The position numbers were made by a program, and so were the translations under genes. From contig DASYCD010000256.1 in NCBI GenBank assembly GCA_036500405.1, positions 5,816-69,815 of the forward strand: a stretch of DNA of 64,000 bases, given 5' to 3'. The notes beneath the pieces were generated by a model. That model did not search any database, was not told the origin of the DNA, and was given only the letters and a program-made list of their open reading frames with translations. This stretch comes from Bryobacteraceae bacterium (GTDB taxonomy: Bacteria > Acidobacteriota > Terriglobia > Bryobacterales > Bryobacteraceae). Below, one piece after another: positions 44,438-64,000 of the stretch (position 1 is its first letter; each line of letters starts with the position of its first letter).

Positions 44438-45709
44438 TTACCTCTTTACAGTGATCTTCAGACCACCCTGCGTGTTCACTCCCTGGTAGGTGCACTGGAT
44501 CGGGTTGTCGCCGTCAGTGGCTCCATTCGGGATTACGACATTGAGCTGGTAAAGACCGGGGCTCACCACGCCGGCATAGGTAACTGTCGCCGATGCGTTG
44601 TTGATCTGACAGGTTGGCAACACGGGAAGAGGGCTCGACTGGGTATTGGAGCCCGGAACCAGCGTGTCCTTCGGCAGACCGAAGCCGCTCGTCCACAACA
44701 CTACGGTTTCGCCAACAGACGCGGGAGTCGAGAAGCCCGTAAAGAGACTGGTGGGGCCCAGTATCCTGTAATCGGCGTGGGTTGCTGTTACGTAGGGCTT
44801 GCTTCCGTCCCACTGGAACAGCGAGGGGGTCACCTGAGTCTCAGTGACTTTAAACGCCGCCGAAGTGGCTGAGCCATTCGAGACAACTACGTCGACCGGT
44901 CCTGTCGTGGCGTCGAGCGGTGTCAATGCATTGATTTGATCCTGCGAAGTGCAAACAGATCCCGGCGCAGTGCTGGCGGCGCAATAGAAGTAAACGTAGG
45001 CCGTTTTGCCGTTCACTTTTACGCTCACGCCATTCAGCGAATCCGGCATCAATCCATTTGCGAATGAAGGGGCATTGCTCCAGAGCGCGCCGCCCACTGG
45101 TGTTCCAGCTGGGGCCAGGTTCGTACCCCGGATTGCGATCCACGTATTTTGCGAAACTCCCGTGCCGTATGCGGCTGCCGCAGACGCAATGACCGGGGTA
45201 TTCCCGCCGCCGGCGCTCACAGACACTTGAACGCTCACGCCAGCCACCGATTGCAGCGTAAGGTTGCCAGCCGACGTTTTCATCGGGCTGGCTGTGGGAA
45301 ACACATTCGTGGTGCCCTGAGTGGCGGCCTGGCTGGCAGACAAGGTATAAGTCGAAAACACTGGATTGCCTACAGTCAGGTAATCCGGAGAGTCGTAGTG
45401 CCAGACGCCTAGCGTCTGCTCGTCCTGATGGACGAAGACGGACTGGTTGTCAGCAAGAGTGAACTTTCCAGCTGGCCCGAAGTCCGCCGCCGCAGGTGTT
45501 CCCGAAGGTGTTGAGTAATCCTCCGCGCAGCACGGGGTTCCATGGGTCACGCTTGACGTATCGGTAGTAAAGGTGATCGAGAATGGCTGGTTGGTGAACG
45601 CCGTAGCGCCGACGCTGCCAGTCGCATTACCGGAAAAGACAATGGTCATCGGCGCCGCCAGAACCGGAGATGCAACAAGAGCTGCCAGCAGCAAAAAGCG
45701 TTTGATCAT
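44438..45709 (-). CDS. Secreted protein with C-terminal Solibacter-type (TIGR03437-like, IPT/Ig-like) domain
   Basis: It has a signal peptide. The C-terminal 230 aa read NTWIAIRGTNLA...VSVKVNGKTAYVYF...PSLFQW...YAGVVSPGLYQLNVVIPNG. Confidence 0.7.
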   Translation of the reverse strand: MIKRFLLLAALVASPVLAAPMTIVFSGNATGSVGATAFTNQPFSITFTTDTSSVTHGTPCCAEDYSTPSGTPAAADFGPAGKFTLADNQSVFVHQDEQTLGVWHYDSPDYLTVGNPVFSTYTLSASQAATQGTTNVFPTASPMKTSAGNLTLQSVAGVSVQVSVSAGGGNTPVIASAAAAYGTGVSQNTWIAIRGTNLAPAGTPVGGALWSNAPSFANGLMPDSLNGVSVKVNGKTAYVYFYCAASTAPGSVCTSQDQINALTPLDATTGPVDVVVSNGSATSAAFKVTETQVTPSLFQWDGSKPYVTATHADYRILGPTSLFTGFSTPASVGETVVLWTSGFGLPKDTLVPGSNTQSSPLPVLPTCQINNASATVTYAGVVSPGLYQLNVVIPNGATDGDNPIQCTYQGVNTQGGLKITVKR

Positions 45710-48954: not shown

Positions 48955-50430
48955 ATGACTCCGCTCGAAAATGATGAGATTGATCGTGCTTCGGCCGGGT
49001 CTTTCCCCGCCTCTGACCCGCCGCCGTGGACTTTGGGGCCGGAACAGACCGATTGCCGGATTGAACATGACTCCATGGGTGAGGTCGCTGTTCCCTCACA
49101 TGCGCTTTATGGCGCACAGACGCAGCGGGCCATTCTCAACTTTCCGATCTCCCACCACCGGCTTCAGCCGGAATTTGTCCGTGCGCTGGGGCTGATCAAG
49201 GCCTGCGCTGCCGAGACGAACGCCGAGTTGGGTGCGCTGCCGGCCGATATTGCCGGACGCATTGCCGCCGCGGCTGGAAAGATCTCTCAGGGCGAGTATC
49301 TCGATCAGTTTGCCGTTGACGTTTTTCAGACCGGCAGCGGCACGTCCACCAACATGAACGCGAACGAAGTGATCGCCCATCTGGCCGGCTGCCATCCGAA
49401 TGACCACGTGAATCGGAGCCAGTCGAGCAATGATGTGATCCCATCGGCGATTCACATCGCCGCGGCACGCCGAATTCACGGCGAACTGCTGCCCGCCATG
49501 GAACTGCTGCGCGGCACGCTCGAAGGTAAGGCGATGGAGTTTGCGGAAATCTTCAAGATTGGCCGCACCCATCTGCAGGACGCCACGCCGATGACGCTCG
49601 GTCAGGAATTCAGCGGCTACGAACATCAGGTGCGGGCGAATGCGGCGCGGCTCGAAGCATCCATGCAGGGCTTGCTGGAATTGCCGCTCGGCGGAACAGC
49701 GATCGGCACAGGGGTCAATGCTCCCGCGGGATTCGCCGCGAGGACCATTGAACGCATTTCGCGCATCACGGGGCTGGACTTTCATGAGGCGCGCAATCAT
49801 TTCGAGGCGCAGTCATCCAAAGACGCCGTGGTGTTCGTGAGCGGCGCTCTGCGAACGTATGCCGTGGCGCTGACCAAAATTGCTAACGACATTCGATGGC
49901 TCGGCTCCGGACCTCGCGGTGGGCTGGGTGAAATCCGGCTGCCCGAACTGCAGCCAGGGTCGAGCATCATGCCGGGCAAAGTCAATCCCGTAGTGCCGGA
50001 GAGCGTGCTGATGGCGTGCGCGCAGGTGATCGGTCACGACGCGACGATTGCCTGGTGCGGCGCCGCTGGCAATTTCGAGCTGAACACCATGATGCCGCTG
50101 ATCGCGTGGGACCTGCTGGACTCTATCAATCTGCTCGCGGCATGTTCACGCAACTTCGCGGTTCGCTGTATCGCCGATCTGGCTGTGGACCCGAAGCGCT
50201 CGGAAGCCCTGATCGAACAATCACTCGCGATGGCAACGCTGCTGGCGCCGGAGATTGGCTATGACAAAGCGGCCGGCATCGCAAAACGCGCCGCGGACAC
50301 TGGCCGTACCGTGCGGGAAGTCGCAGCGGAAATGAGCGGCCTCGATTCCGCGCGCCTCAATCAGCTGCTGTCGTTCCGTCCGCATGGAACAGGTGAGGAC
50401 GGAGATTCCCCGCTTCGTCGAACTCAATAG
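48955..50430 (+). CDS. Class II fumarate hydratase / aspartate ammonia-lyase family enzyme
   Basis: HPNDHVNRSQSSND and GSSIMPGKVNPVVPE signatures are present. The motifs are mixed between FumC and AspA. The start was trimmed to ATG 48955, because the track start overlaps the divergent gene. Confidence 0.85.
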   Translation: MTPLENDEIDRASAGSFPASDPPPWTLGPEQTDCRIEHDSMGEVAVPSHALYGAQTQRAILNFPISHHRLQPEFVRALGLIKACAAETNAELGALPADIAGRIAAAAGKISQGEYLDQFAVDVFQTGSGTSTNMNANEVIAHLAGCHPNDHVNRSQSSNDVIPSAIHIAAARRIHGELLPAMELLRGTLEGKAMEFAEIFKIGRTHLQDATPMTLGQEFSGYEHQVRANAARLEASMQGLLELPLGGTAIGTGVNAPAGFAARTIERISRITGLDFHEARNHFEAQSSKDAVVFVSGALRTYAVALTKIANDIRWLGSGPRGGLGEIRLPELQPGSSIMPGKVNPVVPESVLMACAQVIGHDATIAWCGAAGNFELNTMMPLIAWDLLDSINLLAACSRNFAVRCIADLAVDPKRSEALIEQSLAMATLLAPEIGYDKAAGIAKRAADTGRTVREVAAEMSGLDSARLNQLLSFRPHGTGEDGDSPLRRTQ

Positions 50431-51637
50431 GAAACGCAGGCCCGGCGATTTCGAGATCCGGATTCGCGTCGATTTCCCGGCGCAGATTTTCACTGAGCGC
50501 GAGGGCGCCGAGTTCCAGCGAATTGTGGATCCACGCGATTGTCACATCGGCGGGGTTGAGTTTGCCGACTGTTGCCATGAGCAGATCGATGCATTCGCGA
50601 TCGGACGGAAAGTGCAGGGGAATTCTGACCGTAGCCAGCGAGCCGGACGTCCTCGCATTCAGACCACTCACCTGCAGGTTCACGCGCGGCAGCACATCGT
50701 CATGTACAACATCGGCCAGGCCCACGCCCACCGCGTTGCCGCCGCTGTGAGGCGAGAGGCTGCGGATGAAAATGCGCTCGACGCGCGGCGTATTCGGCCA
50801 CGGGTTGTACTCCCCGTGGACCCCGCGGTTCACGACTTTCAGATCCATTCCGGTGCCGCTGATGTTCTTGCCAATTTCGTCCACAATCAGAATGTCCACC
50901 GCCGGAATGGGAATGCGCGGCATCCACGACTTGACAAGGCTCAGCAGTTTCTCTTCGCGTTCGATGAGTTGCGCGGCCGGCAGCACGGCGACCTCCGCGG
51001 TCTCGTGTGTAGCGTCTTCCAGAATCGCCAGTCCGCCGAGAACTTTGCCCGTTCCGAAAATCAGCTCGCCGGACGAGCGGATCACGCGGTCCATGCCGAG
51101 GCTGCGCGCATGAGAGTGCGACGTTTTCGCCCCCTCCAGCTTTCCAAGACCAATCGCCGCCATCTTCGTGAGACCGCTTTCGAGCGGGCCGGCGAAGCTC
51201 GTGTGCCACTTGATGCGATTGATCAGGAAGATGGCGTCGGCATTCCACGCGTCGCGGCTAACAAAGGTTTCAACGCCTAAGTTCGATTCGCCAAGCGAGA
51301 GAACATCGAGCGAGCTGACGATGGGGCACCCCATCGTCGCTTCGTCGATGCCGTAGTGTGCGAGCGTCGCGGCCTGACCTTCCGCGGTCCCGCCGCCATG
51401 ACTGCCCATCGCCGGAAAAATGAAAGGCCGAAAGCCGTTCGTCCGGAAGAATTCGACAACCGTTCCGACGACCGCGCTGATATTCGAAACGCCGCGACTG
51501 CCCGCGCCGATTGCGACCCGCGCCCCGGGCGACAGTCCTGCGGCGATGCCGCTTGCATCCAGTTCACGGCGGACCGCTCCAGCGACATCCGCCAGAGCTC
51601 GACGTGGAAAGTTTTGCCGTACTGGCAGAAGCAGCAT
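50357..51637 (-). CDS. LarA-like (lactate racemase N-terminal domain / DUF2088-type) protein
   Basis: This 426-aa protein contains IAIGAGSRGVSN...FPAMGSHGGGTAEGQ, which resembles the LarA-related family. The assignment is tentative. Its start overlaps the MEDS gene stop by 1 nt (TGATG). Confidence 0.45.
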   Translation of the reverse strand: MLLLPVRQNFPRRALADVAGAVRRELDASGIAAGLSPGARVAIGAGSRGVSNISAVVGTVVEFFRTNGFRPFIFPAMGSHGGGTAEGQAATLAHYGIDEATMGCPIVSSLDVLSLGESNLGVETFVSRDAWNADAIFLINRIKWHTSFAGPLESGLTKMAAIGLGKLEGAKTSHSHARSLGMDRVIRSSGELIFGTGKVLGGLAILEDATHETAEVAVLPAAQLIEREEKLLSLVKSWMPRIPIPAVDILIVDEIGKNISGTGMDLKVVNRGVHGEYNPWPNTPRVERIFIRSLSPHSGGNAVGVGLADVVHDDVLPRVNLQVSGLNARTSGSLATVRIPLHFPSDRECIDLLMATVGKLNPADVTIAWIHNSLELGALALSENLRREIDANPDLEIAGPAFPIEFDEAGNLRPHLFHADGTTAAD

Positions 51638-52202: not shown

Positions 52203-52853
52203 TCAGTTCGGCAGAAGCTTCTTCACGTGATCGAGAAATTGCTCCGATGAAAACGGCTTCTGAAGAAATTCTACCGCCCCCGGCGTCATTTCCTTCTGCG
52301 AGAGCAATCCGCGCCGCTGGAGTTCGGGCAGACTGAACCCGCTGATATAGAGAAGACGCATGCAAGGCTGGAGGTTTTTCACTTTGCGCGCGACTGCCGG
52401 ACCGTTGCTCTCCTGCAGGACGACACCGGCACCAGCAGATCGATACTCTTCGAAAAGGTTCGCAGTGCTGCACGGCGCATGGTTCGTTGGCGCATTGGAG
52501 AATCCGGGCCTCCGTGCCAGGACGCGCTCGGTCACGTCGATGCCGCTTCCGATGTAACCCTGAAATGCGCCGTCATCGGCGTAGAACGGGAAGCCGCGAT
52601 CGAATATCCAGCGATATTCGCCGTCTGCGTGCTTTATCCGGTAGTGCGTTTCGAAAATTTCACGCCGGCCGAAAAATTCGAGGTAGGTCTTCAGGCAGTG
52701 ATCGAAATCCTCGGGATGTACGCCTTCTGCCCACTGATTGCCGGTCTCCTGGTCCATCGTGCGTCCGCGGAATAGAAGCCAGCGGTCATTGAAGTAGTCG
52801 CACTCCGTGCTGGTGTTCGCTCGCCAGATCATGATCGGGGCTTGTTCCACCAA
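52203..52853 (-). CDS. PAS-domain protein fused to a C-terminal partial receiver-like segment
   Basis: The PAS part is APIMIWRA...YFNDRWLLFRGRT...GNQWAEGVHPEDF...YRIKHADGEYRWIFDRGFPFY...GIDVTER. The tail RLLYISGFS...FLQKPFSSEQFLDHVKKLL is the last half of a REC domain. Only a TTG or GTG start is available. Confidence 0.55.
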   Translation of the reverse strand: MVEQAPIMIWRANTSTECDYFNDRWLLFRGRTMDQETGNQWAEGVHPEDFDHCLKTYLEFFGRREIFETHYRIKHADGEYRWIFDRGFPFYADDGAFQGYIGSGIDVTERVLARRPGFSNAPTNHAPCSTANLFEEYRSAGAGVVLQESNGPAVARKVKNLQPCMRLLYISGFSLPELQRRGLLSQKEMTPGAVEFLQKPFSSEQFLDHVKKLLPN

Positions 52854-52905
52854 TGCCCGGTATTCAATTGCCGAGAGCGGAAGCCACTTTGTCGATCCTC
52901 AGGAC

Positions 52906-53802
52906 TCAAGCAAACACGTCCCTCACCACGATGGACCCGGCGGTCAGCATCCAAGGGCAGTGCTGATAGTCGGAAACCCGCTCAACCTGTCCGTCCGCCC
53001 GGATACCGAGCCGGATAACCCCCTCGATTTCCCATACGCCATTCCGTTGGTTGACGACAACAATGGAGGGCTCGCCGTCAACCTCTCCCATCGCCAGCCG
53101 CCAAATCTGCTTCATCCGTGAGTAGACGCCAAGATAGTCACCAGCGGCGAAGCTGCCTGAATAGCGATCGGCCACCAGCAGCCGGGCGTCGGCGCTGATC
53201 AGTTCGCGAAGTCCGTCCCAGTCGCGACTGTTGAACCGGTCGACGTAAAGCCGCAGAATCTGCTGATTACCAGGCGTCGAGCCGCGTGGGGCGGCTGGCA
53301 TATTCTGCAGTGACTCCAGTTTCGACCTGCCGCGATTCAAAGCTGCTTTGACGCCGCCGGCCGTCGATTCGACCAACTCCGCGATTTCCTCCAGCGAATA
53401 CTCGAAGACATCCTTCAGCAGCACGCATGCGCGCTCCTTCGGCGGAAGATTCATCACCAGATGTTCGATCGCGGGGCCAATAGCCGGCCCGATGGGGTCG
53501 CCGGGCTCGGTGAAGTCCGGCGCCGCCACGGCCGCTTCCGCCTCGATCCGCACGCCGCGGCTTCGCAGAAAATCGATGCACTGATTGTGCGCGATGCGAA
53601 AAATCCACGGCGTGAGCGGACGGTTGTCGTCCCACATTTCCAGGTTGCGATAGGCGCGAAAAAGCGCGTCCTGCACCACGTCTTCGCCGTCCATGATGGA
53701 GCCGGTCATGCGGGCGCAGTATCGATGGAGCCGCGGCCGCAGGGGGCCGAGGGTTTCCAGAAATGCGAGATAGCGAGCTTCGAACTTTCCGGTGTCTTCC
53801 AT
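52906..53802 (-). CDS. ECF sigma factor with C-terminal SnoaL/NTF2-like extension (ECF41/SigJ-like)
   Basis: Region 2 is DGEDVVQDALFRAY...PWIFRIAHNQCIDFLR and region 4 is ERACVLLKDVFEYSLEEIAELV. A roughly 110-aa extension follows (LYVDRFNSRDWDGLRELI). Confidence 0.85.
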   Translation of the reverse strand: MEDTGKFEARYLAFLETLGPLRPRLHRYCARMTGSIMDGEDVVQDALFRAYRNLEMWDDNRPLTPWIFRIAHNQCIDFLRSRGVRIEAEAAVAAPDFTEPGDPIGPAIGPAIEHLVMNLPPKERACVLLKDVFEYSLEEIAELVESTAGGVKAALNRGRSKLESLQNMPAAPRGSTPGNQQILRLYVDRFNSRDWDGLRELISADARLLVADRYSGSFAAGDYLGVYSRMKQIWRLAMGEVDGEPSIVVVNQRNGVWEIEGVIRLGIRADGQVERVSDYQHCPWMLTAGSIVVRDVFA

Positions 53803-53809
53803 GTTTACT

Positions 53810-54580
53810 TCAGCCGCAGTTGCAGCCTTTCGCCTCTTCGTCGCGCCTCCGCGCGGCGGCTCCTTCAGGGTCGGAGATCATATCGAGCCATTTCGCGTCA
53901 GGCCCGGGCTGCGCGGCGTATTGGTCATGCCATCTCCACCATTCGTACGGCTTGGTTTGAGGGTAACCCTCCGGCGAATCTTCCCAGGTCTCCTGGCGGC
54001 CGAGCGGGGTGATGTCGAGATAGCTCCAGACGCTCCCCATCGCCTCATCCCCGCGGTTGTTGATGAGGTAGGTGCGGAACACTTTCTCGCCATCCCGCAA
54101 GAACACGTTGTGCCCGTGCCACTGATCGACACCGAAGTCTTTGTCGAAGTCGCCGGTGATCGTGTACCACGGCATTTTCCAACCCATCCGTTGTTTGAGG
54201 CGTGCGATATCGGCCTGCGGAGCGCGCGAGGCATAAACGAGCGTTGTATCACGGGCGTTCAGGTGTGAGAGATGTCCTACCTGATCCGCGCCGAGAGAGC
54301 ATCCGCGGCAGGCATGGTCTGGCCAGCCGATAACGCCGGGCTCAAAGAAGGCGCGATAGAGGATCAGTTGTTTACGGCCTTCAAACAAATCGAGCAGGCT
54401 CACCTTTCCGCCCGGCCCGTCGAACTCGTACTTCTTCTCAACGCTCATCCACGGCATACGCCGGCGTTCGGCGGCCAGCGCGTCACGCGAGCGGGTAAGC
54501 GCCTTTTCTTTCACGAGAAGCTGCTGCTGCGCTGCCTCCCACTCCTGCCGGGACACGATTGAGGGTGCATTCATTACCAT
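53810..54580 (-). CDS. DUF899 thioredoxin-fold protein
   Basis: REKALTRSRDALAAERRRMPW, YEFDGPGGKVSLLDLFEGRKQLILY and CRGCS are present, with a Trp-rich C-terminal part. AAGGAG lies upstream of the ATG. Confidence 0.85.
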   Translation of the reverse strand: MVMNAPSIVSRQEWEAAQQQLLVKEKALTRSRDALAAERRRMPWMSVEKKYEFDGPGGKVSLLDLFEGRKQLILYRAFFEPGVIGWPDHACRGCSLGADQVGHLSHLNARDTTLVYASRAPQADIARLKQRMGWKMPWYTITGDFDKDFGVDQWHGHNVFLRDGEKVFRTYLINNRGDEAMGSVWSYLDITPLGRQETWEDSPEGYPQTKPYEWWRWHDQYAAQPGPDAKWLDMISDPEGAAARRRDEEAKGCNCG

Positions 54581-54963
54581 TCGGTTTCTCCTTCTGCTTT
54601 CTACAATATGACTTCCAAAATAAACGGAAACGGTTCGCGTCGAAAAAGGTTCGGAGCCGGCCGGCGGCTATCGCGAGAATTCCTCCGGCGGACCCGGCCC
54701 CGGCGACTACTACTGCTGTGTTTGCTATGCAGAGCGGACACATCTTGTTTCCCTTTCATCGCTAACTACGGTCTTCGAACGAGAAAAGATACGGAGCCGC
54801 TGTCCGGAAATGAAACACCTTCATTTTTTTATTAACTTTGGTAATACCACTTTGGGTATATATGCCACCTCCGTCGCTTTTTGCCGTTTTTCCACAGTTT
54901 GGATCGCCCGATTGAAGAAGTTTTCTTTTGCACTGCGGCCAATGGGTGTTATTCTGCTTCCAA

Positions 54964-55455
54964 ATGGAATCGGAATCGCCGGACATGGTGGCCGGCAGAT
55001 CGACAAACAGGCCGGCGGCGGTCGACAAACGCGTCCTCGTCGTCGTGGGTTTTCTTTTCATCCTCGGCGCCGCTTATCTGCTCTCGCGAGCAAGCACACC
55101 GGTCTCGCCCGCGCCGCAAACATCGGTTTTTGCGGTCTCTCCCCCCAATGGCGCAGTGGCTGCGGCCGAAGCCGCGGTAAAACAAAGCGCAACGCCCGAA
55201 AACTATCTGAACCTATCCCTGGCGTATAGCAGGGCGCGGCGATTTCAGGAGTCGTTGGACGCCGCGAAAAATGCGGTCCGGCTGCGTCCGAATTATGCCG
55301 AAGCCTTCAACAATGAAGCTGCGGCCTACGAAGATCTACATCAGTGGGACGATGCAATTGCAGCCGCGCGGGAAGCTCTAAGATTAAAACCGGATTTCAC
55401 GCTCGCCCGCAACAACCTGATCTACGCGGCATCGCAAAAGACGCGCGGTAGATGA
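54964..55455 (+). CDS. Membrane-anchored TPR-repeat protein
   Basis: It has one TM helix (VLVVVGFLFILGAAYLL) and TPR repeats (NYLNLSLAYSRARRFQESLDAAKNAVRLRPNYAEAFNNEAAAY). The track start 54928 is a TTG that coincides with a -35-like hexamer. ATG 54964 or ATG 54985 is more likely. Confidence 0.6.
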   Translation: MESESPDMVAGRSTNRPAAVDKRVLVVVGFLFILGAAYLLSRASTPVSPAPQTSVFAVSPPNGAVAAAEAAVKQSATPENYLNLSLAYSRARRFQESLDAAKNAVRLRPNYAEAFNNEAAAYEDLHQWDDAIAAAREALRLKPDFTLARNNLIYAASQKTRGR

Positions 55456-55579: not shown

Positions 55580-55609
55580 TTGACCGCTAAATGTGTGCTC
55601 CAGTAGAAT
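55580..55609 (+). promoter_or_regulatory. Sigma-70-like promoter candidate for the collagen-like gene
   Basis: TTGACC (55580-55585), an 18-nt spacer and TAGAAT (55604-55609) lie in an unusually AT-rich intergenic region, 88 nt upstream of the ATG. Confidence 0.35.
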
Positions 55610-55696
55610 GCTCTGGTACCACCTGTACTAATTATTATTAAGCGTGTAAATTTTAAATTTATCGCTTAATATTCCGGGGGAGGTCTGCGCAAAAAT

Positions 55697-58681
55697 ATGG
55701 TATTTTCGCGACTTGGGAAAGTTCCGTGCTATGGGATTATTTTGCTGGCGGCAGCTGTCTCCGCTGCCGCGCAGGGGCCCGAAATCACGTCGGTTCAGAG
55801 CGCAGCTCCACTTGTGCGCTCCACCGGCAACGTGGCGCGCGGCGAGTTGATCAGTATCTACGGCTCGGGTCTGACAACGGGTGTCACGCTGAACGCCTAT
55901 CCGCCGACTGCTCCAACGACCCTCGCAGGCACGTCAGTGAATATTGGAGGTATTGCCGCCCCGATCCTTTATATAAGTCCTGGGCAGCTGAACGTCCAGG
56001 TCCCCTTTGAGCTTCCCGCGGGCTCGGCCTCTGTGAACGTGACGGTTACCTCCGGAAGCCAGACGAGCACCCCATTCCTGATGACTTTGGCCGCGTCGGA
56101 CCTGGGAATGTTTGTGGCGCAGGGAACGAGTATCGCCGCTCCATCCTCGGCGAACACCGCCGTGATTTTGGCGGCTCCAGGAAATACAATCCACATCGTG
56201 GCGACCGGGCTTGGCGCCATTGCGCCTGCTGTGCCGAGCGGTATGACGCCGAGTCCCGTGGGGCCGACGTCTAATGCTCTCGCAATACCGGCGGTTACAG
56301 TGAACGGAGCGGCTGCCCAGGTTGATTCGGCCACATATTCCGGCCTCGGACTCTATCTCATTTCGGCCATTGTGCCGCCCAGCGCCGACACAGGCACAGT
56401 CACGGTAGCTCTCGGAGCAACGGGGCTTGTCGGACCAACCGGAGCAACCGGACCTTCTGGCGCGACGGGAGCGACAGGGCCAATCGGTCCAGCGGGAATA
56501 GATGGGTCTGCGGGACCGGCGGGACCGGCGGGGCAAGCAGGTCCTGCCGGATCAGCGGGACCAATGGGTCCGGCGGGAGCAGCAGGGTCGCCTGGAGCAG
56601 TTGGCGCTAACGGGGCAACAGGCGCTACCGGTGCAGTCGGCGCAACCGGTCCCTCGACCGTAAACTACACATCGAACGGCAGCACGGGAAATCTGCTGCA
56701 GACACTGGCAGTCGTCGGCACGGCGTCGGAAGCTCAGGACGCGACCACGTCCACCTTGACCGGTATCGTTGGAATCGCCGGTAACACAACGACTGCCGGT
56801 TCGCCTGTAGCGGTAAGCTCCTACGGCACCACGGCTTGTGTGTTTGACGGTCCGACGACCGCTGGCGACTATTTCCAGGCCAGCACCACCGTTGCCGGAA
56901 ATTGCCACGATGCGGGAGCGATCTATCCCACCAGCAACCAGATCCTTGGGTTTGTTTTGTCAACCAACGGTAGTGCGGGCATGAACCCGGTATTTCTGTT
57001 CGGAGTGGAAATTCGCGGCGGCGCAACGGGCCCGACAGGAGCCACCGGCGCGGTTGGTGCGACGGGCGCAACCGGAGATGCAGGCGCGACAGGCGCGCAG
57101 GGAATTCAGGGCATCACCGGAGCCGTAGGCGCGACGGGCGCGCAGGGAATTCAGGGCTTCACCGGAGCCGTAGGCGCCACCGGCGCAGAGGGAATCCAAG
57201 GCATAACCGGAGCTATAGGCGCGACAGGCGCGCAGGGAATTCAGGGCTTCACCGGAGCCCAGGGACCAGCCGGCTCGCAAGGCGTTACAGGCTCCCAGGG
57301 AATTCAGGGACCTCAGGGAATTCAGGGCATCCCGGGTACGACAGGCACAACCGGCGCGATGGGCGCGACAGGAAATCCGCCGACGGCGGCGGGGACATGG
57401 TCAGCGGGAGACGGCAGCGGCGCCGGCGGCAGTTACAACGCCGGAGACGTCGTATTCTACGCTCCGACGCAATCTTCGTATATCAGCGCCGCGAGCCTGA
57501 ACTTCAGCGTGCCCCCGGCTTCGCCATGGCAACTGCTTTCCGCGCCAGGTCCGACCGGGACCACGGGTACGACTGGGGCTGTGGGGTCGACCGGAGCAAT
57601 CGGAGCGACAGGCGATACCGGAGCACAAGGTATCCAGGGAATCACCGGCCCTGTTGGGGCAACGGGTACGACCGGAACCATGGGCACAACGGGCGCGCAG
57701 GGTATCCAGGGATTCACCGGACCGCAGGGACCGGCCGGCGAGCAAGGCATCACGGGCGCACAGGGAATTCAGGGTAATCAGGGTAATCCGGGCTTTGCTG
57801 GTGCGACCGGCGCGACAGGCGCAACCGGCGCCACAGGCAGCCCGTTGCTCGCGGCGGGAACATGGTCGGCGGGAGGCGGCAGCGCTCCCGACCATAGTTA
57901 CAACGCGGGCGACGTCGTATTCGATGCGCTGACACAGTCGTCCTATATCAGCGCTTCGAGCGAAAACAACAGCACGCCTCCGAACGCGCCATGGCAGCTG
58001 CTCTCGGGGCCAGGCGCGACGGGGACCACGGGGTCGACTGGCGCGACGGGCGCGACAGGCGATGCTGGACCGCAGGGTATTCCGGGAATCACCGGCGCGG
58101 TAGGGGCAACGGGCAGCACTGGCGCCACCGGAGCTACAGGCTTAACGGGTGCGCAGGGCATCCAGGGTATTACAGGACAGCAGGGACCCGTTGGTGCGAC
58201 AGGCGTGGGCTTGACGGGAGCGGCGGGTTCACCTGGTCCAGCCGGTCCGACTGGTGCCACTGGCCCCAGTGCAGCCGGAGGCGGAGTATATGCGGGAACG
58301 TTCACAAATACTGGCAACACAACGCCGACGGTAGACTTTTACCCCTTCTTCGCCTCAGGAAACGGTGGCCCCAATTTCTCGATCGGCGCGACGATCTTGC
58401 CGGCCGCGTGCACGGTAAAAGCGATGTACGTCCTGGCATATAACAATGGCCAATTTAGCGCCGCCGCAGATACGCTGACTTTCGTTCTCTATCACAACGG
58501 CAGCGTTGTATCCGGCGCTACAGCCAGCGTGACGACGAGTAGTACGTCATTCCAAAGATTTACTAACAACGTGACGGGCCTCAGCGAATCCATCTCAGCA
58601 GGCGATGTGATCGCGATAGGAATCCAACAATCAAGCAACGCCCCCGGCGTGAGTGGTTCTTACTCGATTAGTTGCCAATGA
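55697..58681 (+). CDS. Secreted multi-domain collagen-like (Gly-X-Y triple-helix repeat) protein
   Basis: GGGGGAGG lies upstream of the ATG and a signal peptide follows. The N-terminal roughly 210 aa form a Solibacter-type Ig-like domain. The four Gly-X-Y blocks are 56414-56656 (27 triplets), 57020-57379 (40), 57548-57844 (33) and 58013-58270 (28, with one G-X-G break). They are separated by globular inserts and followed by a 136-aa C-terminal globular domain. Confidence 0.9.
57083..57262 (+). repeat. Four tandem 45-bp (15-codon) repeats inside collagen block 2
   Basis: The units start at 57083, 57128, 57173 and 57218. Each encodes [10 protein letters not shown](I/F)TGA(V/I) and variants. 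Units 1, 2 and 4 are nearly identical and each contains GAATTC. Confidence 0.9.
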
Positions 58682-58862
58682 GGATACAGAACACGCCCAT
58701 ACAGGAGAAACCGAAATCCTGACCGCTCTCCTTACATCCCGGGATCCGGCGAGGACCGTCTGGCGCTGAGTACGTGCGACGGACCTCGCTGGCATTCTTG
58801 ATTCCGGCGCGAATTGCAGTCTTAAGCAGCAACTACCGTATACAACAGAAAGGACCTTTCCA

Positions 58863-59429
58863 ATGGCTGACACACCTATTCTCGGATGCATTTACATGTT
58901 CGCGGGCAATTTCGCGATCAGAGGCTACCAGATGTGCAACGGACAAATTTTGCCGATTTCCCAGTACGCGGCATTGTTTTCCATTCTCGGCACCACTTAC
59001 GGAGGTAACGGCACGACGACCTTCGCCCTCCCCGATTTGCGCGGACGCGCTCCGGTCCATCAGGGCACCGGACTTGGACTGTCGCCGGTGGAGTTGGGTG
59101 AAGCCGCAGGCAACCAGAACGTCTCGCTTACCGTAGCCAATCTGCCGGCGCATACGCACGTACCGACGGTAACGGTCGCGGTCAATGGAGCGGGTGCCCG
59201 CCCAACCGCCAACACGCCCGCCGGGAATCTCCTCGCCACAACCGCAACGACAAATAATATATACTGTCCTGGAAACTCAACCCCGCTTGCTCCCCTCGCC
59301 GCGGCGGCTGCCACTGTTACTGCGCAAAACGGTTTGACCGGAAGTAACATTCCTGTAGCTACCCAATCGCCCTTCCTCGGCGTCACGTTCCTCATTGCTA
59401 CGGAAGGCATATTCCCATCACGGAATTAG
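58863..59429 (+). CDS. Phage-tail-collar domain protein (MdpB / tail-fibre-like family)
   Basis: ILGCIYMFAGNFAIRGYQMCNGQILPISQYAALFSILGTTYGGNGTTTFALPDLRGR, NLPAHTH and C-terminal IATEGIFPSRN form the typical full-length family pattern. Confidence 0.85.
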   Translation: MADTPILGCIYMFAGNFAIRGYQMCNGQILPISQYAALFSILGTTYGGNGTTTFALPDLRGRAPVHQGTGLGLSPVELGEAAGNQNVSLTVANLPAHTHVPTVTVAVNGAGARPTANTPAGNLLATTATTNNIYCPGNSTPLAPLAAAAATVTAQNGLTGSNIPVATQSPFLGVTFLIATEGIFPSRN

Positions 59430-59435
59430 CTTGTC

Positions 59436-59936
59436 ATGCATAAAATGCTCCGGGTCTTCTGCGCGACGGCATGGGAACTGGAGGGAGAGCGCCGCGCTTT
59501 CCATGAAGCAATTGGAGAATTCAACGAAACCGAGGCCATGAAGCATGGTTTGCTCTACGTCCCGGTTTCGTTGATTAACATCCGCGACAAGCGTCCTTAT
59601 CAGTACGTGGTCGAAGAGAATATCGGCGCCTGCCGTGCGTATATCCTCGCGCTCTGCGACGGCTCCTGGGGGCCGCCCGAGCGAAACTTTGAGCGAGACC
59701 TGATGCTCGCGGCACAGCAAAGCGCCAATCCGGATTTTCCGATGCGCGATGTCACGCTGCTGTATCGCGAGCCTTCCTCGCCCCCCAAACCCCTTCCCGC
59801 AGACGTGACCGTATCGCCCTTTTCCACGACCGAAGATTTTGTCCGCCAGTTCCGCGCATTGATGTCCACCTGGCTTGCCGCCGACCTCGCCGTGACGGAG
59901 AGCCCCGCGCCGGCTGGCGCCTCACCCGCTTTATGA
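59436..59936 (+). CDS. Hypothetical protein
   Basis: This 166-aa ORF lies 6 nt after the tail-collar gene and has an ATGA overlap with the next gene. I cannot name a family with confidence. Confidence 0.5.
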   Translation: MHKMLRVFCATAWELEGERRAFHEAIGEFNETEAMKHGLLYVPVSLINIRDKRPYQYVVEENIGACRAYILALCDGSWGPPERNFERDLMLAAQQSANPDFPMRDVTLLYREPSSPPKPLPADVTVSPFSTTEDFVRQFRALMSTWLAADLAVTESPAPAGASPAL

Positions 59937-60415
59937 CGGTTTCGTTCCGTCCGGAGACTCCCGGCGACGAGCCCTATCTTCGCGAACTGATCGTGGAAGC
60001 CGTGAGCCAGGAGCTGGGCGCCGACTCATGGCCGGAACCGATGCGAAGCCATCTGTTGAGAATCCAGTACACGCAGCGCCGCTACGCCGTTCGCGTCCAC
60101 TATCCCGAAGGCGAAAGCCGCATCATTCTCGCCGACGGGAAAACCGCTGGCTGGATTTATGTGGCCGCTCTTCCGGATGAGATCCGCATCGCGGAGATCA
60201 TGGTGATGGCCGGATCCCGGAGTCGCGGAGTGGGGTCGGAGGTTATCCGGCGGATCGTCGCCGAGGCTGGCCCTTCCGGTAAGCCCGTGCGCCTGCACGT
60301 GAACGTGATGAACGTACGCGCCGGCGGCTTTTATGAACGCCTCGGATTTCAGCGCATCGGCGGCGACGAACTGCAGCACCTGATGGAGCGCCTTCCGTCG
60401 GCTGAGATATGCTGA
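59933..60415 (+). CDS. GNAT-family N-acetyltransferase
   Basis: IAEIMVMAGSRSRGVGSEVIRRIV (motif A, R-x-x-G-x-G) and FYERLGFQ are present. Confidence 0.8.
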   Translation: MTVSFRPETPGDEPYLRELIVEAVSQELGADSWPEPMRSHLLRIQYTQRRYAVRVHYPEGESRIILADGKTAGWIYVAALPDEIRIAEIMVMAGSRSRGVGSEVIRRIVAEAGPSGKPVRLHVNVMNVRAGGFYERLGFQRIGGDELQHLMERLPSAEIC

Positions 60416-62079
60416 ACGCCCTCGATCTCCCGCTTCGATTTGATCCGGCAAAACTACAGGCGGACCTCGCGCGCATTCAGCCGCACGAATGGGCGCCGCA
60501 CTATAACGAACAGGAATATGGCGGCGAGTGGCGCGGCGTTGCTTTACGATCCGCATCCGGGCAACTGGGCGGGATTGCGGCCCAGGGCAGTTCCTTCGCC
60601 GACACGGAAGTGCTGCGGCGTTGCGATTATTTCCGCGAAATTCTGGCGGGCTTCGAATGCCGTCTGCTGTCGGTTCGCCTGCTCAGCCTGGCTCCGGGTT
60701 CGTTTGTCCGAGAGCACTGCGACCGTGCGCTTGGCTTCGACGACGGCGAAGTACGGATTCATATTCCGATCGAGACCAACACCGGCGTCGAGTTCTATTC
60801 CTGCGGCGAACGCCTGCGTCTGGCGGAAGGCGGCTGTTATTACGTGGACGTGAGCCGGCCACACCGCGTCGCCAACCGCGGGGGACGCGATCGCGTTCAC
60901 CTGGTGATCGATGCAGAAGTGAACGACTGGATTCGCCAACTGTTCTCAGAGGCGAGGGCAACCGAACGAATCGCGCCGCCGCCGCTGGGGTTCGCGGCAT
61001 TTCGCGACGTGGTTCTGGCGGATACCGAATTGCGGCAGGCCCTGCACGCAATTTCGGAGCCGCGGGAATTCGTCGACGAGGTGATTCGCGCCGGCCACAG
61101 CCGTGGTTTCGAATTCGACGCGGCGGATGTCGAAGCGAAACCAAACCCGCTTCCCGAGTCTTCCCCGCCCGCTTCTTCTCCATCCGGCGCGTGGATTCCC
61201 ATAGCGCTGAAGGAGACCGCCGCGGAGTGGATTTATTTCGGCGCTCGGCGCTTCACCCAGCCATTTTTCGACGACGACGTGAAAGCGGCGCTGCAAAATC
61301 GCTTCGCGCGGACATTCCGGCGAATCGCGCCGCTGCCGAATGGACAGAATTGTTCCCCGTCCGGCTTCATCCTCCACATGTCCCGCTGCGGCTCCACGCT
61401 GGCCGCGCGCATGCTTGCGGCGCTCCCCAACGCCACTGTGATCTCGGAAGCTCCCATTCTCGATGAGGCGATTCAAACCGGCCGCGCCGAAATCGTGCGA
61501 TCCGCCGTCGCCGCTCTGCAGATCGAAGCCGGGCCGTACTTCATCAAATTCGATGCCTGGCACATTCACCGCCTGCCGCTGATCCGCGAAGCCTTTCCCA
61601 ATACACCCTGGGTGTTCCTCTATCGCGAGCCGCTCGAGGTCCTGGTATCGCAATCCCGCATGCCCGGCCGAATGTCCCTCCCGGGCGCCATGGATCCGGC
61701 AATCCTGGGGATGCGACGCGAAGACATCACGATTCCCAGAGACGAGTGGTGCGCGCGCGTCATCGCCGCGTTCTGTGAATCGGCTCTGCGATACCGGTCC
61801 GATCCTCAGGGATTATTCGTGAATTATCGCGATCTCTGCGAAGCCGGCCCGGCAATCCTGCTTCACCACTTTGGCGCCGGTATGGATGACACCAAACAGG
61901 CCAGCATGGACCTCGCGATGGCTGCGGACGCGAAATTCCCCTCCCGCCCGTTTCAGCCGGATGGCGAAAGTAAGCGCGACGCCGCTCCGGATGCTCTGAG
62001 ACAGCTTTGTGTGCGCACTGTGAATCCTCTTTATCGCGAACTCGAGGCGGCGGCCGAATCCGCTTTCGCTAAGATTTAA
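60409..62079 (+). CDS. Three-part fusion of an Asp/Asn beta-hydroxylase-type 2OG oxygenase, a Nif11-like linker and a sulfotransferase
   Basis: The N-terminal cupin has VREHCD...RIHIPI...VSRPHRVAN (H-x-D...H triad). The middle part FAAFRDVVLADTELRQALHAISEPREFVDEVIRAGHSRGFEFDAADV is Nif11-like. The C-terminal part has ILHMSRCGSTL (PAPS 5'-phosphosulfate loop) and FLYREPLEVLVS. Confidence 0.65.
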   Translation: MLNALDLPLRFDPAKLQADLARIQPHEWAPHYNEQEYGGEWRGVALRSASGQLGGIAAQGSSFADTEVLRRCDYFREILAGFECRLLSVRLLSLAPGSFVREHCDRALGFDDGEVRIHIPIETNTGVEFYSCGERLRLAEGGCYYVDVSRPHRVANRGGRDRVHLVIDAEVNDWIRQLFSEARATERIAPPPLGFAAFRDVVLADTELRQALHAISEPREFVDEVIRAGHSRGFEFDAADVEAKPNPLPESSPPASSPSGAWIPIALKETAAEWIYFGARRFTQPFFDDDVKAALQNRFARTFRRIAPLPNGQNCSPSGFILHMSRCGSTLAARMLAALPNATVISEAPILDEAIQTGRAEIVRSAVAALQIEAGPYFIKFDAWHIHRLPLIREAFPNTPWVFLYREPLEVLVSQSRMPGRMSLPGAMDPAILGMRREDITIPRDEWCARVIAAFCESALRYRSDPQGLFVNYRDLCEAGPAILLHHFGAGMDDTKQASMDLAMAADAKFPSRPFQPDGESKRDAAPDALRQLCVRTVNPLYRELEAAAESAFAKI

Positions 62080-62082
62080 ATC

Positions 62083-64000
62083 ATGCGACGATCGATGACG
62101 TTCGTTGCGGCGCTCTCTGTATTGCTTGCCGTTACGCTGACCTACACGAATCATTTTCATAACGCGTTTCAGTTCGATGATTTTCACAGCATCACAGACA
62201 ACGTCTTTATCCGCGACCTCTCGAATATTCCGAAGTTTTTCACCGACGCCCGGACGTCCAGCGTCTATCCCACGCACCAGGCATGGCGTCCGCTCGTCAC
62301 AACGTCTCTGGCGCTCGACTACTGGCTCGGCCAGGGTTACAACACCTTCTATTTCCATCTCTCCACGTTCCTGTGGTTCCTGACGCTGCTGGTTTTCGCA
62401 GCCTGGCTATTCCGGGCCATTCTCGACAAAGTCGAGCCCGATCCGCGAAATCTCTGGATTGCCTGGTTTGCGGCGGCCTGGTTCGGCCTGCATCCCGCGA
62501 TTGCCGAAACGGTGAATTACATCATCCAGCGGGCGGACCTGATGTCCACGTGCGGCGTGGTTGCCGGCGTTGCGATCTACGCGGCCTTGCCGAAGTGGCG
62601 GGCGTGGGGCATCTACCTGCTGCCAGTCGCGATCGCCTTTCTTTGTAAGCCGCCCGCCATGATTTTTCCGGCGTTGCTGGCCCTGTATATTTTCCTGTTC
62701 GAAGAGGATGCATCGCGCGGGAGCTGGCCGCGGGTGTTTCGGAGGACATTGCCATCGTTGGCCCTGACGATTGCGTTCCTTGCGCTTCAGGCCACAATGA
62801 CGCCGAAGAGCTTTTCGCCCGGATCTGTTTCGGCGTGGCGCTACCTCATCACACAGCCCTATGTCTGGTTCCGTTATTTCGTTTCGTTTTTCCTGCCGTT
62901 CCACCTGAGCGCCGATACCGATCTCTCCGCGCTGAGCAGTCTGCTGAGCCTGGAGGCGCTGGGAGGGCTGCTCTTTGTTGCCGTGCTCGTCTTCGCAATC
63001 GTCGTTTTGTCGAAACGTCCGGCGGCGCGGCCGGTTGGGTTCGGACTCGGGTGGTTTGCGCTGAGCCTGATTCCGACTTCGATCTTCCCGCTCGCGGAGG
63101 TCGAAAACGATCACCGCATGTTTCTTCCATTTATTGGCCTGGTGCTCGCGGGTGCGTGGACAGGCGCGGCGATCCTGAGACGACGCCGCGAATTCCAGAC
63201 CGTTCTTGTAGCCGGAGCGCTCTGCGTGCTGCTCCTCTACGCCCTGGGAACTCGCCGCCGCAACGAAGTCTGGCGAACGCAGGACAGTCTCTGGGAAGAC
63301 GTGACTTTGAAGAGTCCCCAAAACGGCCGGGGACTGATGAATTATGGGCTGGCGCGAATGTCCGTCGGGGACTATCGCGTGGCGCTGAATTATTTCGAAC
63401 GCGCGCTTCAGTACACGCCCAACTATCCGTCGTTGGAGATCAACCTCGGAATCGATTCCAGCGCTTTGGGCCGCGACACGGAAGCCGAGGCGCACTTCCG
63501 GCGCGCGATCGCACTCGCTCCCACAGACTCCGAGCCGCATTATTACTACGGGCGATGGCTCCGCGGCAAAGGACGGAATGATGAGGCTATCGGGGAGTTG
63601 CGGACAGCGATCGGCTTCAATCGCGCGGACATGAACTCTCGTGTTCTGCTGCTCGCCACGTACGCGGATAAGGGAGATTGGGCGCAGCTCAAACCGTTGG
63701 CGATGGAAACGCTGCAACTCGCGCCGAACGATCCGGAAGTCCGCCGTTATGCGTCCATGCAGCCGTCGCAGCAACAGCCGCGGCCAGCGGCGGCTGCTCC
63801 CGCGAATGCGGTAGATTCGATGATCAACCTTTCCCTTCAGGCGTTTCAGAAGGGGGACTTCGAAGGCTGCATCCGTGACGCGAAGATGGCGCTCCAGCTA
63901 AAGAAGGATTCCGCGGAAGCCTGGAATAACATCATCGCCGCAAATAACGCGCTTCACCGATGGGATGAAGCCATCCAGGCGGGCCACGAGGCGCTCCGGA
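62083..64000 (+). CDS. TMTC/PMT-like GT-C-fold membrane protein with C-terminal TPR repeats (3' end outside window; absent from ORF track)
   Basis: I translated 639 codons from ATG 62083 to the window end without a stop. It has about 10 TM helices, FQFDDFHSITDN after TM1 (an acidic GT-C loop motif), then TPR repeats (GLMNYGLARMSVGDYRVALNYFERALQYTPNY...). Confidence 0.75.
   Translation, partial: MRRSMTFVAALSVLLAVTLTYTNHFHNAFQFDDFHSITDNVFIRDLSNIPKFFTDARTSSVYPTHQAWRPLVTTSLALDYWLGQGYNTFYFHLSTFLWFLTLLVFAAWLFRAILDKVEPDPRNLWIAWFAAAWFGLHPAIAETVNYIIQRADLMSTCGVVAGVAIYAALPKWRAWGIYLLPVAIAFLCKPPAMIFPALLALYIFLFEEDASRGSWPRVFRRTLPSLALTIAFLALQATMTPKSFSPGSVSAWRYLITQPYVWFRYFVSFFLPFHLSADTDLSALSSLLSLEALGGLLFVAVLVFAIVVLSKRPAARPVGFGLGWFALSLIPTSIFPLAEVENDHRMFLPFIGLVLAGAWTGAAILRRRREFQTVLVAGALCVLLLYALGTRRRNEVWRTQDSLWEDVTLKSPQNGRGLMNYGLARMSVGDYRVALNYFERALQYTPNYPSLEINLGIDSSALGRDTEAEAHFRRAIALAPTDSEPHYYYGRWLRGKGRNDEAIGELRTAIGFNRADMNSRVLLLATYADKGDWAQLKPLAMETLQLAPNDPEVRRYASMQPSQQQPRPAAAAPANAVDSMINLSLQAFQKGDFEGCIRDAKMALQLKKDSAEAWNNIIAANNALHRWDEAIQAGHEALR

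Follow-up and report, generated by a model that had tools for sequence, protein, structure and literature searches.

A predicted collagen-stalked extracellular fibre with in-line globular modules in a Solibacteraceae/Bryobacterales acidobacterium

We analysed a 64-kb stretch of DNA from a Bryobacteraceae bacterium (contig DASYCD010000256.1 of assembly GCA_036500405.1; the whole stretch is called the window here), in which a complete open reading frame (ORF) on the forward strand, 55697-58681, encodes a 994-amino-acid (aa) collagen-like protein. The ORF lies exactly where an earlier reading of the letters alone, referred to below as the original prediction, had placed it, and has the length given there. 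The gene, the identities and folds of its modules, the existence of a family of related proteins and purifying selection are direct results of the analysis. The reading that we favour, and hold to be rather likely, is that the protein forms a homotrimeric extracellular fibre with collagen stalks, exported by the Sec route and probably serving as an adhesin or a surface 'nap' fibril in a Solibacteraceae/Bryobacterales acidobacterium. The gene and the modules of its product are as follows.

55697..58681, + strand: collagen-like gene; a 907-aa orthologue with identical start is found in L002, a contig of a metagenome-assembled genome (MAG)
55697..55771, + strand: predicted Sec signal peptide, aa 1-25, with cleavage before QG, inferred from the sequence
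55772..56413, + strand: Solibacter 'Soli_cterm'-type Ig-like domain (IPT/TIG-like), aa 26-239, matched by TIGR03437 and Pfam TIG
56414..56656, + strand: collagen block 1, 27 triplets; with 10 Pro in X it is richer in Pro than the other blocks
56657..57019, + strand: insert 1, aa 321-441, a two-Cys domain (C381, C403) common to secreted giant proteins of Acidobacteriota and phage virion-module proteins
57020..57379, + strand: collagen block 2, 40 triplets, which holds a 45-nucleotide (nt) tandem array
57380..57547, + strand: insert 2, aa 562-617, a putative divergent CBM5/12-like module
57548..57844, + strand: collagen block 3, 33 triplets
57845..58012, + strand: insert 3, aa 717-772, a second putative divergent CBM5/12-like module
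58013..58270, + strand: collagen block 4 of 22+6 triplets, which a one-residue deletion breaks at GVG-LT-G (nt 58208-58216)
58271..58678, + strand: predicted 136-aa jelly-roll head of C1q/TNF/BclA-C type, aa 859-994, the presumed trimerisation and nucleation domain at the distal tip

A script count gave 128 Gly-X-Y triplets in blocks of 27 (aa 240-320), 40 (aa 442-561), 33 (aa 618-716) and 22+6 (aa 773-838 and 841-858), which reproduces the predicted total, the four blocks and the G-X-G break in the last of them. The break that splits block 4 (GVG-LT-G, in the context GAT-GVG-LT-G) is conserved in the L002 orthologue. Pfam Collagen (PF01391) matches eight stretches of the protein with E=9.8e-52, and no other ORF of the window contains a G-X-Y run of at least six triplets; the pattern is far beyond chance. 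The tandem array of block 2 consists of 4.2 copies of a 45-nt (5-triplet) unit at 57071-57259.

Concerning composition, 56 of the 128 triplets are G-X-Thr; the original prediction was right in calling the blocks rich in this triplet, and its figure of 57 was one too high. The Y position is occupied by Thr in 43.8% and Gln in 20.3% of triplets, and the X position by Ala in 40.6%, Pro in 17.2% and Ile in 14.8%. The triplets contain 29 Pro (22 in X and 7 in Y) among 384 collagen residues, so that a predicted count of about 29 applies to them and not to the whole protein, in which there are 70. As had been predicted, Lys and Arg are absent from all triplets; Asp and Glu together occur six times. 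For Gram-positive bacterial collagens, Ghosh et al. (PMC3368898 Table 4) give Thr at 48.3% and Gln at 18.4% of Y positions and Ala at 23.1% of X positions; an excess of the triplets TGA and TGP has been noted for bacteria and viruses (PMC11923368). Because Thr and Gln in Y, Ala in X and few charges are typical of the Gram-positive proteins, the composition of the blocks appears ordinary for bacterial collagens and less unusual than the original prediction implied. The lack of basic residues makes Lys-Asp/Glu salt-bridge clamps impossible, which leaves Thr/Gln hydration networks, possibly Thr glycosylation, and the trimeric flanking nodes proposed below as sources of stability.

The contig L002, from an uncultured Solibacteraceae MAG, is syntenic with the window over about 14 kb, and the neighbouring proteins are 82-94% identical in amino acid sequence. 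Its 907-aa orthologue has the same layout with 25/22/33/13+6 triplets. All length differences between the two proteins are found in the collagen blocks and comprise whole triplets (6, 54 and 27 residues), as the constraint of a triple helix predicts; block 2 of the orthologue is 18 triplets shorter, a difference that coincides with the 45-nt tandem array. The ratio of nonsynonymous to synonymous substitution rates (dN/dS) between the orthologues is 0.126 overall, and the gene is real, conserved and under purifying selection. The head is the most divergent globular module (72.8% identity) and has the highest dN/dS (0.236), a pattern that an exposed binding tip would be expected to show. Another syntenic fragment, L001, breaks off within the collagen region. 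The closest genomes are MAGs of Solibacteraceae/Bryobacterales.

The C-terminal domain, with which the protein ends (...SISCQ), has no Pfam match at E<=10, the C1q, TNF and BclA families included, and no PDB sequence match; the isolated inserts and this domain gave nothing significant in direct Pfam, PHROG and PDB-sequence searches. A filter-free HMMER search with the domain against 1.84 billion representatives returned only 23 proteins at E<=1e-3. The matches in the 22 relatives all end at, or a few residues before, the C-terminus of the protein in question; collagen repeats directly precede the domain in nine of the 14 relatives read, and three relatives carry CBM96 (Pfam) at the N-terminus. 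The alignment of these relatives was used to build an AlphaFold2 (AF2) model, which is all-beta, with eight strands of at least three residues, a predicted local distance difference test score (pLDDT) of 90.9 and a predicted template modelling score (pTM) of 0.85. In Foldseek, 21 PDB structures match the model at E<=1e-3, and all but the top one, the spike knob of phage phi812, belong to the C1q family, the TNF family or ExsFA/BxpB. The PDB fold neighbours as a whole (E about 1e-4, TM 0.4-0.55) are almost without exception C1q-family heads (C1QL1-3, cerebellin-1/4, Caprin-2 and C1q), TNF-family ligands (4-1BBL and EDA), the Bacillus exosporium proteins ExsFA/BxpB, and phage spike or baseplate knobs; BclA itself is absent from the top 50 PDB structural matches. 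Predicted viral structures match more tightly (E 2e-7 to about 1e-6, TM 0.60-0.75, root-mean-square deviation 3.4-5 Å). This group consists of the C-terminal parts of collagen-repeat proteins from Klosneuvirus, Fadolivirus, Catovirus, Pithovirus, Tupanvirus and uncultured tailed phages, together with a protein annotated 'BclB C-terminal domain' and minor tail proteins of Gordonia phages.

The model and its neighbours thus support a C1q/TNF/BclA-type jelly roll at the level of the fold, not of the sequence family. The original prediction had proposed a C1q/TNF-like domain of the size of that of BclA, and both the type of fold and the length of 136 aa agree with what we find. C905 and C993 are nearly invariant among the relatives, which suggests a disulfide between them; the four Cys of the mature protein form two conserved intradomain pairs (C381/C403 and C905/C993). 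The position at the C-terminus, after collagen repeats, is consistent with a domain that nucleates folding from this end. No locus came out of a genome scan with this domain alone, as its exact-peptide patterns miss even the 73%-identical orthologue, and a metagenome scan with the C-terminal alignment was empty. As a separate observation, the C-terminal query matches 21 Cna_B repeats of a 2904-aa metagenomic protein, P0009 (summed E=1e-19, 29% identity). This may reflect either composition or a distant beta-sandwich kinship, and sits oddly with the C1q-like assignment.

The Gly-X-Y regions could also be read as flexible, possibly glycosylated Gly/Thr/Ala-rich linkers between independently folding domains, with no triple helix at all. 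Such linkers would agree with the paucity of imino acids (22 Pro in X and 7 in Y over 128 triplets), the absence of basic and the scarcity of acidic residues (six), and the impossibility of salt-bridge 'clamps', which have been proposed as a general folding aid (PMC11923368). They would not account for a strict Gly periodicity over 27-40 triplets that is maintained under purifying selection, with insertions and deletions between orthologues only in whole triplets, nor for the C1q-type domain, of a class that trimerises collagen stalks, which adjoins the last triplet directly. BclA and other bacterial collagens rich in Thr and Gln are, moreover, recognised triple-helix formers (PMC8968730, PMC3368898). 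We consider the linker explanation very improbable.

The triple-helical stalk of the favoured fibre is interrupted by three inserts, of which the second and third lie exactly at the positions given for them in the original prediction. These two are 72% identical to each other and contain all four Trp of the 994-aa protein. A 300-nt duplication (57206-57505 and 57671-57970, 76% identical) includes part of insert 3, and the segments made up of a block end with insert 2 and a block end with insert 3 are therefore paralogous. Neither the whole protein nor the isolated inserts are matched directly by CBM_5_12 (PF02839), and a word-indexed homologue search with a 56-aa insert returned no candidates. 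Relatives found via the C-terminal domain and insert 1 have inserts of 48-50 aa between collagen blocks, with the motif W..Y..GD.V.[FY].GSSYIS...P...W.LL, and these do reach CBM_5_12: P0018 with 28.2 bits (gathering threshold 26.2), the protein of locus L003 with E=4.7e-54 over 11 matched stretches, and that of L007 with E=3.3e-15. A profile made from the relatives alone picks exactly the two inserts of the window (12-14 bits), and hhalign connects the window-type and relative-type inserts with 96.4% probability (E=1.2e-9). The joint profile reaches the solved CBM5/12 structures 4ILV (E=1.2e-4) and 1ED7, the ChiA1 chitin-binding domain (E=1.3e-3), and also tail-fibre chains. Both types of insert are found within single metagenomic proteins in L133, L135 and L136. 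The 56-aa inserts are thus supported as divergent CBM5/12 modules by homology through intermediates, and the predicted resemblance to CBM5/12 holds through the hhalign match to relatives' inserts that pass the Pfam model. With CBM5/12 (ChiA1 1ED7, chitinase B) they share the motif W...Y-x-x-G-D-x-V-x-[FY]...Y...P...W-x-L and the module size. They differ in a 6-residue Gly-rich and a 2-residue insertion in the window copies, in falling below Pfam detection, and in standing in line between triple helices instead of being appended to an enzyme.

Concerning insert 1, the predicted globular insert after block 1 is present, with 121 aa in place of the 120 given for it. A genome scan found this domain at no fewer than 86 places, of which 79 loci were kept, almost all in MAGs of Acidobacteriota (Bryobacterales, Terriglobales and Sulfotelmatobacter among the host groups). 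Its two Cys and a Gly/Asp motif are invariant among the relatives. It occurs eight times between the collagen blocks of L004 and once or twice in each of the collagen proteins of L003, L006 and L007, but is mostly found in non-collagen proteins, many of them 1,200-2,600 aa long. The only recurrent Pfam match is Phage_cement_2 (PF09956), sub-threshold in four of 38 relatives (best E=3.2e-4; L006 E=0.007); the window's own copy has no Phage_cement_2 match. PHROG 'head scaffolding' is sub-threshold in five of the 38. The AF2 model, built on an alignment of eight sequences, is poor (pLDDT 50.6), for which reason its Foldseek neighbours give only a weak concordant hint: trimeric phage decoration proteins (the Pam3 cement protein, lambda gpD, SHP, the base of phi29 gp8.5) stand out within the top 20, all at E>=0.03; the insert-1 profile matched no solved structure. 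We tentatively regard insert 1 as phage-cement/gpD-like.

The same domain is encoded on 51 viral contigs of IMG/VR. In one of them, L086, the insert-1 gene comes directly after those of a gpJ-like tail protein (phrog_4271, E=2e-161) and of another tail protein; in other viral loci, the neighbours scanned include genes for DNA ejection and head closure. Most of the insert-1 phage proteins (L081-L131, e.g. L113 5353-6744 and L086 5893-6915) have a Sec signal-peptide-like start, an uncommon feature in parts of a virion; possible identities are secreted morons or fibres associated with the envelope.

The distribution of insert 1 also bears on a different origin of the protein, as the tail fibre of a phage, tailocin or contractile injection system (or a prophage remnant), in which the collagen shaft and C1q-like tip would form a receptor-binding apparatus. 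Beside the virion genes around insert 1 in those viral contigs, this explanation can draw on the head, whose fold best matches the C-termini of phage and giant-virus collagen fibres and Gordonia phage minor tail proteins, on weak PHROG minor-tail matches, on a Collar-domain gene 182 nt downstream, and on the described fibres of extracellular contractile injection systems (eCIS) with collagen shafts and C1q or TNFR-like tips (PMC12923769). The Sec-type signal peptide and paired Cys are unlike fibres assembled in the cytoplasm. Deposited phage genomes (INPHARED) contain no match to insert 1 or the C-terminal domain, and the 548 ORFs that were called in the viral loci match the 64-kb window nowhere but in the insert-1 segment; the locus thus does not represent a prophage of that kind. 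The neighbours in the window encode a carbamoyltransferase, a fumarase, a Ni-pincer isomerase, MEDS/PAS proteins, a sigma factor, DUF899 and a small TPR protein, and the flanks are syntenic between the two genomes: the collagen gene sits among ordinary chromosomal genes. A prophage location was rejected on these grounds, and a tail fibre of any of these kinds seems quite improbable to us.

For a surface fibre, as we prefer to read it, the N-terminal region is of importance. The signal peptide has a basic n-region, a hydrophobic core (Kyte-Doolittle peak 2.4) and an AAA|Q site, and a similar N-terminus recurs in orthologues and in other members of the collagen-fibre family; together with the two conserved Cys pairs, this makes export of the protein probable. 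The domain that follows is matched by TIGR03437 (Soli_cterm) at aa 42-249 (E=4.8e-36, 124.6 bits against a cutoff of 29.05) and by Pfam TIG at aa 28-127 (E=6.9e-8). In the neighbour gene 44438..45709 the TIGR03437 domain is C-terminal (aa 178-422 of 423), and the predicted contrast between the two genes is borne out by both matches. The domain is also N-terminal in the L002 orthologue, and the proteins of L003, L007 and L136 have, by eye and without a profile scan, a similar N-terminal start. Its occurrence at either protein end, if shared by these three, would speak for a role in binding or attachment and against a sorting signal confined to the C-terminus.

Among the relatives the same modules recur in other arrangements, with as many as 14 collagen blocks in L003, and the 994-aa protein belongs to a combinatorial 'beads-on-a-string' family. 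Giant secreted acidobacterial proteins in L005 (8921-14302) and L008 (6741-10535) mix collagen, CBM5/12 and insert 1, and contain many 'SVFGRTGAV...APLASPTFTGT...NSTKLATTAYVQ' repeats that resemble phage tail-fibre repeats. We do not claim that their 'SPTFTGT...STKLATTAYV' repeats are the classical phage tail-fibre repeat, which Pfam did not detect in them. A 1075-aa member in L136 (7667-10894), with an N-terminus resembling the Soli domain of the window, has mini-modules of about 36 aa, 'TVGxGTTTTGAAGTSASVTNSGTSSAAVFNFTIPQG', repeated between its collagen blocks.

In the fibre that we infer from these modules, export, trimerisation, folding direction, anchoring, ligand and any Thr glycosylation would be as follows. 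The C-terminal jelly roll of C1q/TNF/BclA type would trimerise and nucleate the triple helix, which would then form from the C- to the N-terminus; such C-to-N zipper folding is the general collagen mechanism (PMC11923368). The four charge-free, Thr/Gln-rich helices would be semi-rigid spacers of about 23, 34, 28 and 25 nm (about 110 nm in total, calculated from 0.286 nm per residue), and the whole fibre would be about 0.12 µm long. At each interruption, three copies of one insert, either the phage-cement-like knob or a CBM5/12-like module, would assemble as a 'bead'. These modules are small and would be either disulfide-containing or built on an aromatic core; a bead would pass on the chain register to the helix that follows, and could contribute binding sites. 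The Soli/TIG domain at the N-terminus would tether the fibre to the cell envelope or matrix, with the fastest-evolving module, the head, at the distal end. Thr residues of the stalk may be glycosylated.

Several points weigh against this fibre. Anchoring motifs such as LPXTG or PEP-CTERM were not seen by eye in the sequence, and there is no glycosyltransferase gene among the flanking genes scanned. The stability of the helix is uncertain because imino acids are few (29 Pro in 384 residues) and salt bridges impossible, and the fold of insert 1 depends on a model of pLDDT 50.6 and on sub-threshold matches. In the profile alignment, the position of the Trp in the 'GWEP' loop of ChiA1 (W687), which we take to be the main exposed chitin-contact residue, is non-aromatic (E, T, S or V) in the family of the window inserts. 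Binding of sugars is for this reason not assured: the comparison supports a CBM5/12 fold for the inserts, but not carbohydrate binding.

The same gaps apply if the fibre is taken as a matrix or biofilm scaffold, which would cross-link the cell's own exopolysaccharide via the CBM-like beads and the head, and not adhere to foreign substrates; such a scaffold differs from the adhesin or nap fibril in its ligand only. It would make use of a long, multivalent fibre with repeated CBM5/12-type modules, some relatives carry an N-terminal CBM96, and polysaccharide-related genes (nucleotidyl transferase, carbamoyltransferase) are found elsewhere in the window. The exposed CBM5/12 aromatic residue is not conserved. 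We consider the scaffold rather unlikely, and retain the surface adhesin or nap fibril as the preferred interpretation.

Among the closest known systems, BclA/BclB of Bacillus (exosporium nap, ENA tip fibrillae) and Pcl of Pasteuria share with the window protein a G-X-Thr-rich, nearly charge-free stalk; a C1q/TNF-like jelly roll of about 135 aa directly follows it in them, as the predicted head does here. They are also presumed to be surface fibrils with a distal head, and the fold matches of the head include ExsFA/BxpB and the 'BclB C-terminal domain' protein. The window protein differs in that it has no sequence match to BclA or C1q Pfam families, is encoded by a Gram-negative, non-sporulating acidobacterial host, begins with a signal peptide and a Soli/TIG domain instead of an exosporium-targeting motif, has four stalks with three globular interruptions instead of one stalk, and prefers Ala or Ile to Pro in X (GAT, GIQ vs GPT). 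EPclA/EPclB of the prophage side-tail of E. coli O157:H7 (PMC3368898) are trimeric fibres that share with it collagen stalks joining globular modules, which in EPcl are trimerising domains, and length variation in whole triplets; in EPclB two collagen domains surround a globular Pf2 repeat, so that interrupted stalks are already known (PMC3368898). The EPcl proteins are, in contrast, prophage-encoded, have Pro- and charge-rich collagen (GPK, GER) and other globular domains, and lack signal peptides. Collagen fibres of giant viruses (Klosneuvirus, Fadolivirus, Catovirus, Pithovirus) and uncultured phages have the same collagen-then-jelly-roll order and the best fold matches to the head, but the identity is only 12-26%, and they are viral whereas the window gene is chromosomal. 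Scl1/Scl2 of streptococci and Lcl of Legionella are surface collagen-like adhesins whose NCBIfam models match the collagen regions with 149-169 bits, far below the cutoffs of 325-500 bits; the window protein lacks their LPXTG, N-terminal V domain and charge-based stabilisation. Collagen in combination with C1q or TNFR-like tips also occurs in eCIS fibres (PMC12923769).

Literature searches, with subscription-journal papers outside their coverage, found no prior description of acidobacterial collagen-like proteins or collagen-CBM5 architectures. Xu et al., writing in Biomacromolecules in 2010, reportedly expressed a Solibacter usitatus collagen-like protein and found it to form a triple helix. 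Bacillus spores, phages and giant viruses already provide examples of collagen-like fibres with C1q-type heads, and we see no new principle here. The novelty lies in the phylum of the host, in how many and which modules stand in line (CBM5/12-like and cement-like ones), in the Soli/TIG domain at the N-terminus, in the presence of a signal peptide and in the combinatorial family with up to 14 blocks.

Other features of the locus were recorded upstream and downstream of the collagen-like gene.

55580-55609: promoter-like site, one site found by the scan against 1.1 expected, no commoner than in shuffled sequence
55676..55683, + strand: Shine-Dalgarno-like GGGGGAGG, 13 nt 5' of the ATG, read directly from the sequence
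58863..62079, + strand: co-oriented, tightly packed cluster of four genes, which starts 182 nt 3' of the collagen gene

The four downstream genes encode a Collar-domain protein, a 166-aa protein, a GNAT acetyltransferase and a fusion of an Asp/Asn-hydroxylase-like domain with a sulfotransferase. In the interval from 58681 to 58863 the scan detected no terminator-like hairpin. Only the close orthologous loci, L001 and L002, share the cluster with the window, which leaves a functional link between it and the collagen gene, considered here, unproven; a role of the cluster in modification of the fibre, or as its partner, is only a lead. The first gene (58863-59429, +) encodes a 188-aa protein that has a phage tail Collar domain (MdpB-like) and no signal peptide, and a Collar gene was not found beside more distant members of the collagen family. 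The last (60409-62079, +) encodes the 556-aa fusion of an Asp/Asn beta-hydroxylase-like 2-oxoglutarate oxygenase (aa 18-169) and the sulfotransferase, whose linker has a sub-threshold match to a Nif11-like leader (24 bits vs 32); it could be a protein-modifying enzyme.

The collagen gene and the Collar cluster are flanked by genes for the small TPR protein (54928-55455, +) and an unannotated 455-aa protein (62407-63774, -). Homologues of these two are adjacent to each other, a few kb from collagen-like genes, in three Bryobacterales loci (L003 13515-15224, L004 6711-8315 and L006 12469-14088), and in the window the collagen gene and Collar cluster stand as if placed between them. Upstream, the window (52203-54580) and L002 (7364-7794) differ by an insertion or deletion of about 2.3 kb; between MEDS and TPR, L002 lacks the greater part of the stretch formed by the PAS gene, the sigma-70 family gene and DUF899. 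The isomerase beside the MEDS/PAS regulators (50357-51637, -) is a nickel-pincer-cofactor-dependent enzyme of group 22 (NCBIfam 445 bits, cutoff 400).

Acidobacteriota are among the most abundant and least tractable phyla of soil, and this family offers candidate surface or matrix fibres for adhesion and aggregation there. A triple helix without basic residues and with three large interruptions would be a natural test of collagen folding and bears on the 'electrostatic clamp' code (PMC11923368), and the small in-line trimer nodes could be a toolbox for engineered recombinant collagens. The shared knob domain documents traffic of modules between secreted proteins of Acidobacteriota and largely unknown phages. 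Going further, and only as a tentative proposal that we think more doubtful than probable, the protein would represent an undescribed class of Acidobacteriota fibre, in which collagen helices are combined with small trimer-forming modules exchanged with soil phages (a cement/gpD-like knob, CBM5/12-like beads and a C1q-like head), and in which the in-line beads, not salt-bridge clamps, re-register and re-nucleate a wholly charge-free helix beyond each large interruption. If this is true, the sharing of the knob with phage virion modules would mean either that phages borrow the adhesion modules of their hosts or that the hosts display phage-like decoys.

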